DNA of 64,000 bases. It comes from Klebsiella pneumoniae. GTDB taxonomy: Bacteria; Pseudomonadota; Gammaproteobacteria; Ga0077536. Position numbers and translations under genes: made by a program. Below, one piece after another: positions 1 through 3,738 of the stretch. How positions within the stretch are numbered: position 1 is the first letter of the stretch; the number at the start of each line of letters is the position of its first letter. The stretch lies in NCBI GenBank assembly GCA_945862315.1, contig CAMAXW010000005.1:17890-81889 (forward strand). The letters run 5' to 3'. The notes under the pieces are model-generated. The model saw only the letters and a list, made by a program, of their open reading frames with translations, searched no databases and was not told the DNA's origin.

Positions 1-1746
1 ACTCCGCCGGCCCAAGCCCCGCGCAATCAGCGACTGCTGTACTTGGTCGCTAATTTCCGCCGCTTCCAGCAAGGCCGAGGTGGAAAGCCCTTCAGGTGCT
101 CTTGCTAAGCCCGCGATGGCCGTTACCACCTGAGCGTTCGCGTAGTCGCCGGCGCCCGCATCCCCAGCTGTTCGCGTTGGTGTTTGGAACTGTCGGCGCA
201 GCGCGAACTGTGTTTGAGCCGCGCTAAAGGCCTGTTGGAAATTAGGCGCGAGCGCGAGCCCCGGGCCTTGGCCAAAACCCATGGCGTGGCCTGGCCCCGT
301 GCTGGCCAGCATCGGTCCCTCGTTAATGAGAGTCGGCAACTCATTCAGCAGTGGGAAAAAAGAACCACCGACACCACCGACACCACCGACACCACCGACA
401 CCACCGACACCAGCGCCACCAGCGACACCAGCGCCACCAGCGCCACCAGCGCCACCACCGACACCACCGACACCACCGACACCACTGACACCACCGACAC
501 CACCGACACCACCGACACCACTGACACCAGCGACACCACCGACACCACCGACACCACCGACACCACTGACACCACCGACACCGCCGGCACCAGAGACACC
601 ACCGGCACCACCGGCACCACCGGCACCAGCGACACCACCGACACCAGCGACACCACCGACACCAGCGACACCACCGACACCAGCGACACCACCGGCACCA
701 CCGGCACCACCGGCACCAGCGACGGCGGGCACCCGATGCGGTCGGGGGCGTGCCTCGGAGCGGCGCACAACGAGGGGTTGCGGCGTCGGACCGAGCAGCG
801 GTTGAATATCGTTTTGCGTTAACAGGTCGATTAGATCGGCGCACAGGCGCGGCAAGTGCGTGTCGAGCAGGCGTCGGAGGATTCTAAATAACGCCTCGCC
901 GGTAGGTGGGTTCGCGAACTCTTCCTTGAGCGCATCAGCAAAAATGCCGCAGACTACCGCCGGTCCAAACGGATTAGAGCCCCTGTCGATCACGCGTCTC
1001 GCGAGCGAAGATAGGCGCGCAGCAAGCTCTTCAATGGCGGGTTCATTGGCACGTTCAAGTTCAGCGACGATGCCCGACAACGACAAAAAGTGCTCAAATT
1101 CCCTTTTCTCGATTAGAGATAATTTGCTGTCAAGATCAATCCCCCCCCCCTTGGCCGCAGGCTCCAAGGGGTTATTGAGAATGGCAGCCGCCCGGCTAAA
1201 CAGGGCATGGACCTGCGAGCGGATCGCCGCGCTGCGATCCTTCAGCCGCGTCAGCGCCTCGTGGATGGTTCGGCTTTCTCGGTCCGATCTGGCATCCCGG
1301 GCCGCCAAAAATAGGGCTTCACCGGTCTGACGCAGTAGTTCTTCGATCACCACACCCGAGCAGCGCTCCACGACTTGAAGAATTTTAGGCAGCGTACGGC
1401 CAAACTCTGGGGCGAGCCGACGTTGGGTCTCAGAGAGATTGTCGTACGTCGCGCCCGCCTGCGCGCTGGCGTAATGCTCCAAACGCTGAAGGCTGACTAG
1501 CGAGGGGCCTTTGAACGCTACCCCCAACCCTGCGGGAATGACCCGACAGATCACGAGACCCAGTTGGTCCTCCTCACCGCCTTCTTCTAAGCAGAAGCGC
1601 AATACCGCATGGGACTTAAGCTGGGTCTGCGCCAAAGTGTCCGCACCTAGCTGGATAAACATCCCAGCGACACAGAAATCCTTAACAATGCAGGCAACGG
1701 GAGGCCGCCCTTCAACGACGATTGAAGCGGGAAGCTGGATAGGCAT
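1..1746 (-). CDS. Partial (3' end beyond window) hypothetical protein, >580 aa. It has a PilZ-like N-terminal motif (RRRYIR ... DFCVAG). A central ~120-aa Gly-rich (GGV/GGA)n linker is followed by a C-terminal region.
   Basis: I translated the minus strand by hand. The frame stays open from the ATG at 1746 to position 1. The stop upstream is at 1861-1863. The sequence is protein-like ([33 protein letters not shown]...). This gene runs off the window edge, and the track omits such genes. The start could be an upstream GTG. Confidence 0.6.
364..722. repeat. Tandem array of about 40 copies of a 9-bp unit (ACCACCGAC, with ACCAGCGAC, ACCACTGAC and ACCACCGGC variants). It encodes (GGV/GGA)n on the minus strand and TTD/TSD repeats in the plus frame.
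   Basis: The periodicity is directly visible. All three reading frames across it are open (TTD, GGV and WCR repeats). Confidence 0.9.
1141..1150. repeat. Homopolymeric C10 tract (G10 on the coding minus strand, encoding K-GGG). It lies inside the partial CDS.
   Basis: Ten consecutive C read directly from the sequence. This is rare in a GC-rich coding region. Confidence 0.9.
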
Positions 1747-2058
1747 GCGAATGTAGCGCCTGCGCTCCGCCCCTTTGCTGGTCTTCGTGTCATCCACCTT
1801 GATTTTTAGCTGCCGCAGACAACGCCATGGAATTTCATGCCGACCTCCGAAGCGACGCTGTCGTTAGGGAGGCGGCGCGTTTTTTTGAGATTTAGTCTGG
1901 ACGAAGTCTAGCATCGTTCTTAGCGCGGCCAAATTACTCTCGGCAGACCCATTTAAATACCCATCCCGCCAGTAATGTGGCGGAGCAGACACGCCCGCGC
2001 GCTGGCTATGCCACAATGCAGGCCATCCTAAAACGCCCGCCAGTAAGACCCAAAACCG

Positions 2059-3738
2059 ATGCCCATGGACACGCCACCAAGCCGTAGTAATTTCATCCGC
2101 GACATCATTGAAGACGACCTGCGCGAGCAACGTCATCAGCAGATCGTGACCCGCTTCCCACCAGAACCCAACGGCTACCTGCACATTGGCCATGCGAAAT
2201 CGATTTGTCTCAATTTTGGCGTGGCCCGCGCTTACGCCGGCCACTGCAATCTGCGCTTCGACGACACCAACCCAGGTAAGGAAAGCGCGGAGTTTGAGCA
2301 AGCCATCGCCGAGGATGTGCAATGGCTAGGCTTTACTTGGGAGGATCGCTACTTCCACGCCTCTGATTACTTCGAACAACTCTACGCCTACGCGGTACAG
2401 CTGATCGAGCACGATAAGGCTTACGTCGACAGCCAATCGGCCGAGGAAATCCGGTTAACGCGGGGCACGCTCACGGAGCCTGGCCGCGATAGTCCCTATC
2501 GCAACCGAACGGCGGCTGACAATCTAGACCTCTTTGCGCGCATGCGCCGTGGCGAATTCCCGGACGGCGCGCAAGTGTTGCGCGCCAAAATTGACATGAC
2601 CTCGCCCAATATCAATCTGCGCGACCCGACGCTCTACCGCATCCGCCAAATTGAGCATCACCGTACCGGCGCGCAGTGGCACATCTACCCAATGTATGAC
2701 TATAGCCACTGCCTTTCGGATGCCCTAGAAGGCATCACACATTCGCTGTGCACCTTGGAATTTGAGGACCATCGCCCCCTTTATGACTGGGTCTTGGCGC
2801 AACTACCCGTGCCCTGCCAACCACGCCAAATTGAATTCGCGCGTCTCGAAATCAACTACACCATCACCAGCAAACGCAAACTGCACGCACTGGTGAGCGA
2901 GGGCTTGGTGAATGGCTGGGATGATCCGCGTCTTCCCACACTCAAAGGCATGCGTCGGCGCGGCTATCCAGCAGCGGCTATTCGCGAATTTTGCGAGCGC
3001 GTGGGGATAACCAAAAAACAGACGGTCATCGACATGGGGGTACTGGAAACCTGCCTGCGCGAAGAACTGGACCGCAGCGCGCCACGCGTCATGGCCGTCC
3101 TCGACCCAGTAAAACTGGTGATCGAGAACTATCCAACCGACCTCATCGAACAACTCCCGGCCGCCAATCACCCCAAAGATCCCGCTTTTGGTGAGCGTTT
3201 AGTGGACTTTTCACGCGAAATCTATATCGAGCGTGAAGACTTCATGGAAACCCCCTCGAAAGGGTTTTTTCGCCTCGCACCGGGACGCGAGGTGCGGTTG
3301 CGATGGGCCTATTTAGTGACCTGCACGGACATCATCAAAGATCCACACGGCGAGATTCTCGAAATTCACTGTCGCTATGACCCCGCCACGCGCGGCGGCA
3401 ACGCACCCGACAACCGCGCCGTGAAGGGCACTCTCCACTGGGTGTCGGCGGCTACCGCCATCAGCGCCGAAGTACGGCTTTATGACCGGCTATTCACCAT
3501 CGCCGAACCCAGCGGTGAAGATTTTCGTCAACATCTAAACCCCGCTTCCCAACGGCAGGTACCAGCAGCCAAGCTGGAGGCGTCGCTGGGCCACGCCGCG
3601 CCTGGCGCGCCATTTCAATTCGAACGCATTGGCTATTTCTGCGCCGACCAGCACGACCACGCGCCCGCTCAACCCGTGTTTAACCGCACGGTGACCCTGC
3701 GCGATACTTGGGCGAAAGTCCAAGGTCGGCGGGATTAA
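2059..3738 (+). CDS. glnS: Glutaminyl-tRNA synthetase
   Basis: 559 aa. It carries the class I HIGH motif (PEPNGYLHIGHAKS) and full-length GlnRS-like sequence. Confidence 0.95.
   Translation: MPMDTPPSRSNFIRDIIEDDLREQRHQQIVTRFPPEPNGYLHIGHAKSICLNFGVARAYAGHCNLRFDDTNPGKESAEFEQAIAEDVQWLGFTWEDRYFHASDYFEQLYAYAVQLIEHDKAYVDSQSAEEIRLTRGTLTEPGRDSPYRNRTAADNLDLFARMRRGEFPDGAQVLRAKIDMTSPNINLRDPTLYRIRQIEHHRTGAQWHIYPMYDYSHCLSDALEGITHSLCTLEFEDHRPLYDWVLAQLPVPCQPRQIEFARLEINYTITSKRKLHALVSEGLVNGWDDPRLPTLKGMRRRGYPAAAIREFCERVGITKKQTVIDMGVLETCLREELDRSAPRVMAVLDPVKLVIENYPTDLIEQLPAANHPKDPAFGERLVDFSREIYIEREDFMETPSKGFFRLAPGREVRLRWAYLVTCTDIIKDPHGEILEIHCRYDPATRGGNAPDNRAVKGTLHWVSAATAISAEVRLYDRLFTIAEPSGEDFRQHLNPASQRQVPAAKLEASLGHAAPGAPFQFERIGYFCADQHDHAPAQPVFNRTVTLRDTWAKVQGRRD

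Follow-up and report, generated by a model that had tools for sequence, protein, structure and literature searches.

PacR (XC_3388) of Xanthomonas campestris consists of DUF1631 only, and its mutant deregulates c-di-GMP genes (PMC9543026). The link between PacR and c-di-GMP is drawn from phenotype alone, direct evidence being missing according to the authors of that study (PMC9543026). In LapD of P. fluorescens and V. cholerae, both GGDEF and EAL are degenerate; it is a protein with transmembrane, periplasmic and HAMP parts that senses c-di-GMP by its EAL domain. In the FimX systems of Xanthomonas and Pseudomonas, which include PilZ and PilB, a degenerate GGDEF-EAL module is paired with PilZ; c-di-GMP is bound by the EAL domain of FimX and not by the separate PilZ protein. 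RbdA (PA0861; PAS-GGDEF-EAL) is an active phosphodiesterase with all catalytic residues. Finally, the canonical PilZ receptors (BcsA PilZ, YcgR, MapZ/PA4608, Alg44, PA0012) carry the Ser of the [D/N]hSxxG motif, whose canonical form is given in 10.1101/814665.

In this study, we characterized a gene that enters a 64-kb window of DNA (the whole stretch analysed) at its first position and encodes a 1274-aa protein. This protein has the DUF1631 scaffold in common with PacR (PF07793 above the cut-off) and adds to it an N-terminal PilZ domain and a C-terminal GGDEF-EAL module. The NCBIfam PacR model (NF058594) scored 16.8 bits against a cut-off of 1200; hence, the protein is not a PacR orthologue and is related to it through DUF1631 only. 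Weak matches to the same model were obtained with three PilZ-less DUF1631 proteins (P0002-P0004). Every single domain is already known and the protein falls within known kinds of c-di-GMP signalling proteins; the gene belongs, as an uncharacterised member, to domain families already described and does not represent a new kind of system. We favour, with moderate confidence, a non-enzymatic role for the protein as receptor and scaffold for c-di-GMP signalling, with a kinase as its most likely partner.

Gene, start codon and domain architecture

The original prediction placed an uninterrupted minus-strand frame across the 5' end of the window. This frame is indeed open from 1863 to 1 (621 codons, phase ...1797-1795...3-1), the in-frame stop being 1864-1866, and the other five frames of 724-1797 contain 6-20 stops each. 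GC content at codon positions 1/2/3 is 0.67/0.46/0.65 in the gene, which matches the 0.65/0.43/0.66 of the neighbouring glnS. The minus-strand gene is real and encodes a large cytoplasmic protein, in which no transmembrane-like segment was found, the hydropathy peaks corresponding to the PilZ strands and a glycine-rich tract. Its first 599 codons (1..1797, minus strand), an open frame with Pfam matches to PilZ and DUF1631, lie in the window. As already remarked in the original prediction, the gene is missing from the ORF listing, because it crosses the window edge.

The listing does include a 212-codon plus-strand ORF of TTD repeats (184..822), a mechanical entry that had been regarded as an antisense shadow. 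Our data bear this out: homology falls entirely in the minus-strand frame, as does conservation in alignments of relatives, and the plus-strand ORF exists only because the repeat of the tract is stop-free in every frame. We rejected it as a gene, since it lacks homology and lies opposite a conserved coding strand. That this ORF is real after all, or that the locus is split in two, a pseudogene or an assembly artefact, has next to no probability in our view. Related contigs are split by gene callers, several contigs stop within the repeat, and on contig L074 the calls comprise a wrong-frame ORF of 123 aa across the tract and a separate C-terminal gene of 779 aa. However, the tract is crossed by one unbroken frame in L002, L005, L074 and the window itself, L074 has 40 repeat units independently of the window, and both flanks of the tract are conserved as a single protein across about 200 clusters.

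Translation probably starts at the GTG at 1795..1797 (minus strand) rather than at the internal ATG at 1744..1746 (Met18) chosen by the original prediction and by gene callers in relatives, among them P0160, called from MPIQLPAS. The latter start fails on the RxxxR motif, which sits upstream of that ATG and is retained only with the GTG, the sole canonical start between the stop at 1864-1866 and this motif. Moreover, the Pfam PilZ match begins at residue 11, ahead of Met18. The GTG start leaves 11 residues (M+10) before the ERR sequence, matching the family consensus. Upstream of the GTG, nucleotide divergence from the relatives L002 and L004 climbs sharply, and no clear Shine-Dalgarno sequence is evident for this codon. 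The region between the start and glnS (1798..2058, bounded by the ORFs) is common to both divergent genes, glnS occupying 2059-3738 on the plus strand. It contains one promoter-like site, weak and on the plus strand, and no riboswitch or other RNA was matched in Rfam at E<=1 over positions 1-2200. The divergent glnS is kept in all clade loci.

Extending the contig, as had been proposed, recovered the full gene as one 1274-aa ORF on the 137-kb contig L074, which is 99.9 % identical to the window over 3312 nt, gap-free and covering the whole tract. Contig L001 overlaps positions 1-504 at 100 % identity and supplies the continuation past the left edge. The architecture of the protein is firm, with the order PilZ, DUF1631_N, (GGV/GGA)40 linker, DUF1631_2nd, DUF1631_C, GGDEF and EAL. 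In the full reconstruction, Pfam scores were 177.3 bits for DUF1631, 93.6 for EAL, 60.5 for GGDEF and 33 for PilZ. For the window part, DUF1631 (PF07793) reached 88.5 bits against a gathering score of 33.7, which the full protein also exceeds, and the N, 2nd and C parts of DUF1631 were all recognized. DUF1631 had been overlooked in the original prediction, whose view ended before GGDEF and EAL.

The N-terminal helical domain of DUF1631 comprises residues 138-358 (724..1386, minus strand). A conserved segment after the linker and the start of the second helical domain comprise residues 479-599 (1..363, minus strand), a stretch matched at 100 % identity by the first 104 aa of the database protein P0001. 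This protein carries PF26671 (DUF1631_2nd), and its AF2 model shows helices. P0001 and P0160 are both annotated with the DUF1631 parts PF26671 and PF26670. An hhalign comparison of DUF1631_2nd with DUF1631_N was negative, and the idea that DUF1631_C is a hidden PilZ-like domain was rejected at the sequence level (hhalign probability 0.5 %).

The PilZ domain and the glycine-valine tract

A HMMER search against PF07238, the check suggested with the original prediction, identified a PilZ domain at residues 11-109 (1471..1767, minus strand; profile positions 1-99 of 102), scoring 34.0 bits (gathering score 22.5; E 3.9e-8). It shows the PilZ fold, a beta-barrel of six strands with a helix at its C-terminal end. 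Both motifs of the anticipated RxxxR ... DxCxxG arrangement are present. The first c-di-GMP-binding motif reads R13-R-Y-I-R17 (1747..1761, minus strand), and the second is D40-F-C42-V-A-G45 (1663..1680, minus strand), a form of [D/N]hSxxG in which Cys takes the place of Ser. Among 204 relatives, 192-197 of which were aligned per position, R13 is found in 192/192 and R17 in 191/192. Position 42 is C in 186, S in 9 and A in 1 (n=196), flanked by D (189) or N (7) and by G (194/197), which gives the consensus [D/N][F/Y][C/S]xxG. The Cys singled out in the original prediction is therefore real and a conserved trait of the family, present in 95 % of it, in contrast to the Ser of the canonical receptors, which is also the residue that replaces it in all but one of the other relatives. 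We found no paper on PilZ with DxCxxG. Unlike the canonical receptors, PilZ here is not a small adaptor and heads a 1274-aa multidomain protein. The protein is probably a c-di-GMP sensor.

DUF1631 is split by a (V/A/G)(G/A/S)G tract of 120 residues (359-478; 364..723, minus strand), made of forty 9-bp units of GTCGGTGGT. This is the strongest tandem repeat within the window (TRF: period 9, 40.0 copies, 90 % matches, indels 0, score 524). The (GGV/GGA)n linker had been predicted as central; the tract is there, but its position among the 1274 residues of the full protein is not central. It sits in the variable low-complexity inter-domain linker of the family (61-308 aa, A/P/G-rich); it is a disordered linker, and it is a DNA-level expansion of the 9-bp unit. 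Gly is encoded by GGT in 64/69 codons inside the tract versus 15/74 elsewhere in the gene, and Val by GTC in 29/29 versus 17/78. Such codon monotony is better explained by recent slippage than by selection acting on the sequence.

The number of units is 40 in the window and in L074, which backs this length independently, at least 17 in L004, and 5 in the close relative L002, the last allele coming from short-read (k141) assemblies able to collapse repeats. A metagenome scan for close relatives returned only loci of 48 % identity, adding nothing on tract length. Because the unit is 9 bp, length changes stay in frame, as seen in all three alleles (40, at least 17 and 5 units); this is not the behaviour of a contingency (phase-variable) repeat. 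Unlike the tract, a G10 run at codons 215-218 (K-G-G-G; 1141..1150, minus strand), the longest homopolymer in the window, could shift the frame. At this site the relatives L002 and L004 read AAGGCGGAGAAA (K-A-E-K), and the region is a surface loop modelled with low confidence (pLDDT about 60).

The tract might do more than tether passively, either as an elastomeric or self-associating element (clustering, condensation) or as a selected, length-variable "tuning knob". Glycine-rich tracts do recur at the same inter-domain position, in the PilZ-less P0002-P0004 and, as Gly-Val tracts, in L004 and L005, and copy number differs widely between close relatives. Most members, however, have ordinary A/P/G/Q-rich linkers of varied sequence, P0002-P0004 are a biased sample retrieved because of their tract, and the codon pattern speaks for slippage. 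We regard such an active role as decidedly improbable. The linker would rather act as an entropic tether, whose length replication slippage may alter in frame.

The degenerate GGDEF-EAL module

The GGDEF-EAL module (residues 850-1274) lies beyond the left edge of the window, and its best PDB sequence match is RbdA (E 5.9e-43). When aligned with this active enzyme, 10/11 catalytic or ligand positions of the EAL domain are replaced (E>H, R>S, E>A, N>P, E>A, E>D, DD>DE, K>A, E>K, E>S), and all metal ligands but one are lost. The same replacement pattern is seen in 29 related loci. The residues of EAL phosphodiesterases (E, R, E, N, ExxE, DD, K, ExxE) are accordingly not in place. The GGDEF site reads SGDEL in the place of GG[D/E]EF and its phosphate-binding K/R positions read R/D, while the guanine-binding Asn/Asp are mostly retained, so that GTP binding could still occur. 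The RxxD I-site is a common accessory trait of GGDEF diguanylate cyclases, not a defining one. The residues that we take, by eye and against the position of RESD in PleD, to correspond to it are DKPV, and hence no RxxD is apparent.

Distant members of the family (Nitrococcus, with the cultured N. mobilis Nb-231 at locus L054, Chromatiales and others) retain the full EAL set (E, N, E, E, D, D, K, E, E), some keep GGDEF, and the family consensus reads ExLL, INLSG, EITET, DDFG, KIDG and AExVE. This would suit an active c-di-GMP phosphodiesterase, or a bifunctional cyclase and phosphodiesterase, whose activity is set by the c-di-GMP bound at its own PilZ domain. The EAL replacements and the SGDEL sequence led us to reject this reading for the present protein, for which we consider it very improbable.

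In the AlphaFold model of P0001 (pLDDT 91, pTM 0.89), the GGDEF-EAL module is predicted to pack compactly like apo LapD. Superposition of the whole module gave TM scores of 0.62-0.63 with apo LapD, the closest packing for the predicted helix-GGDEF-EAL arrangement, 0.49-0.51 with c-di-GMP-bound LapD and 0.44 with RbdA. Unlike LapD, the protein has no transmembrane, periplasmic or HAMP parts, its EAL domain is without the usual binding Glu and Arg, and the binding motifs are held by PilZ. The best sequence matches in the PDB include FimX, and the fold matches include PilZ-FimX EAL complexes. In FimX the EAL domain does the binding; here PilZ is fused and carries the motifs, which the EAL domain has lost. 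The roles of PilZ and EAL thus appear to be swapped relative to FimX.

These likenesses raise the possibility of a two-site receptor such as LapD or FimX, in which PilZ would be a second or auxiliary site beside a degenerate EAL or GGDEF domain still able to bind a nucleotide (c-di-GMP, GTP or another). The clade has conserved residues of its own in the degenerate EAL pocket (N>P, E>D, D>E, E>K/R), and together with the retained Asn/Asp of GGDEF they fit this scheme; such substitutions could mean ligand binding, and a purely scaffolding role may therefore be wrong. Nevertheless, the EAL Glu and the Arg of ExLxR, both kept in FimX (4j40), are His and Ser here, and most metal ligands are gone. 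Two-site binding is unlikely in our judgement, if less so than an active role of the tract.

The receptor and scaffold reading remains the one we prefer, and we infer the following mechanism for it. The PilZ barrel at the N-terminus would bind c-di-GMP with its RxxxR and D-F-C-x-x-G motifs. From there the helical DUF1631 modules, which the flexible Gly-rich linker would tether to each other, would relay the signal to the GGDEF-EAL module, presumed to be catalytically dead and predicted to resemble apo LapD. This module would serve as the output or interaction surface, most likely for the presumably co-transcribed kinase.

Family, kinase neighbour and significance

In a homology search, the 599-aa query was swamped by low-complexity matches and still returned P0001, the C-terminal continuation. 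A word-indexed search with the masked N-terminus found P0007 only, and a profile of 41 sequences found P0180 and P0181 only. These searches were too sparse, and an exhaustive HMMER search was needed to reveal the family; a genome scan for relatives used a 6-sequence alignment. With the N-terminal 358 aa and a limit of E<1e-3, HMMER retrieved 530 cluster representatives, of which 201 also passed E<1e-10. Most are 1150-1350 aa long and cover query residues 4-350. Among 39 sampled members, DUF1631 and EAL were found in 39/39 each, GGDEF in 36/39 and PilZ in 31/39. The family is populated, uncharacterised and gammaproteobacterial, and its members share this architecture.

The downstream neighbour of the gene, separated from it by a 1-nt gap, is a Hanks-type Ser/Thr kinase (Pkinase and cNMP_binding). 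It lies immediately downstream in 33/33 assessable loci of a clade in which glnS synteny is likewise conserved, with 63-92 % identity and often a stop/start overlap. The kinase is also adjacent outside the clade, in L045 (intact EAL) and L067 (partly degenerate EAL), both without glnS synteny. This conserved neighbourhood suggests that the protein probably works with the kinase. Tentatively, and with low confidence compared with the receptor and scaffold reading, we propose a conserved two-gene module in which the Cys-variant PilZ-DUF1631 scaffold and its dead GGDEF-EAL module may couple c-di-GMP to a cNMP-gated Hanks kinase, the near-invariant Cys perhaps rendering c-di-GMP binding thiol- or redox-sensitive.

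DUF1631 occurs widely, yet its function is not known, and PacR is to our knowledge its sole studied member. About 200 sequence clusters fuse it to PilZ, GGDEF and EAL, and this provides a domain-fusion argument for a link between DUF1631 and c-di-GMP. The fused family supplies proteins that can be tested, with the Cys-variant PilZ motif and the kinase partner as testable hypotheses. Gene callers break the gene at the repeat and lose the PilZ part. Since short-read assemblies break at the in-frame 9-bp repeat and gene calls are split there, the PilZ-bearing N-terminus of this species is absent from protein databases. If the two-gene module proves true, an uncultured lineage of Gammaproteobacteria from freshwater and groundwater would have cross-talk that connects c-di-GMP with cAMP/cGMP and with protein phosphorylation, and the fusion would be the first direct evidence of the DUF1631/PacR scaffold in c-di-GMP signalling.

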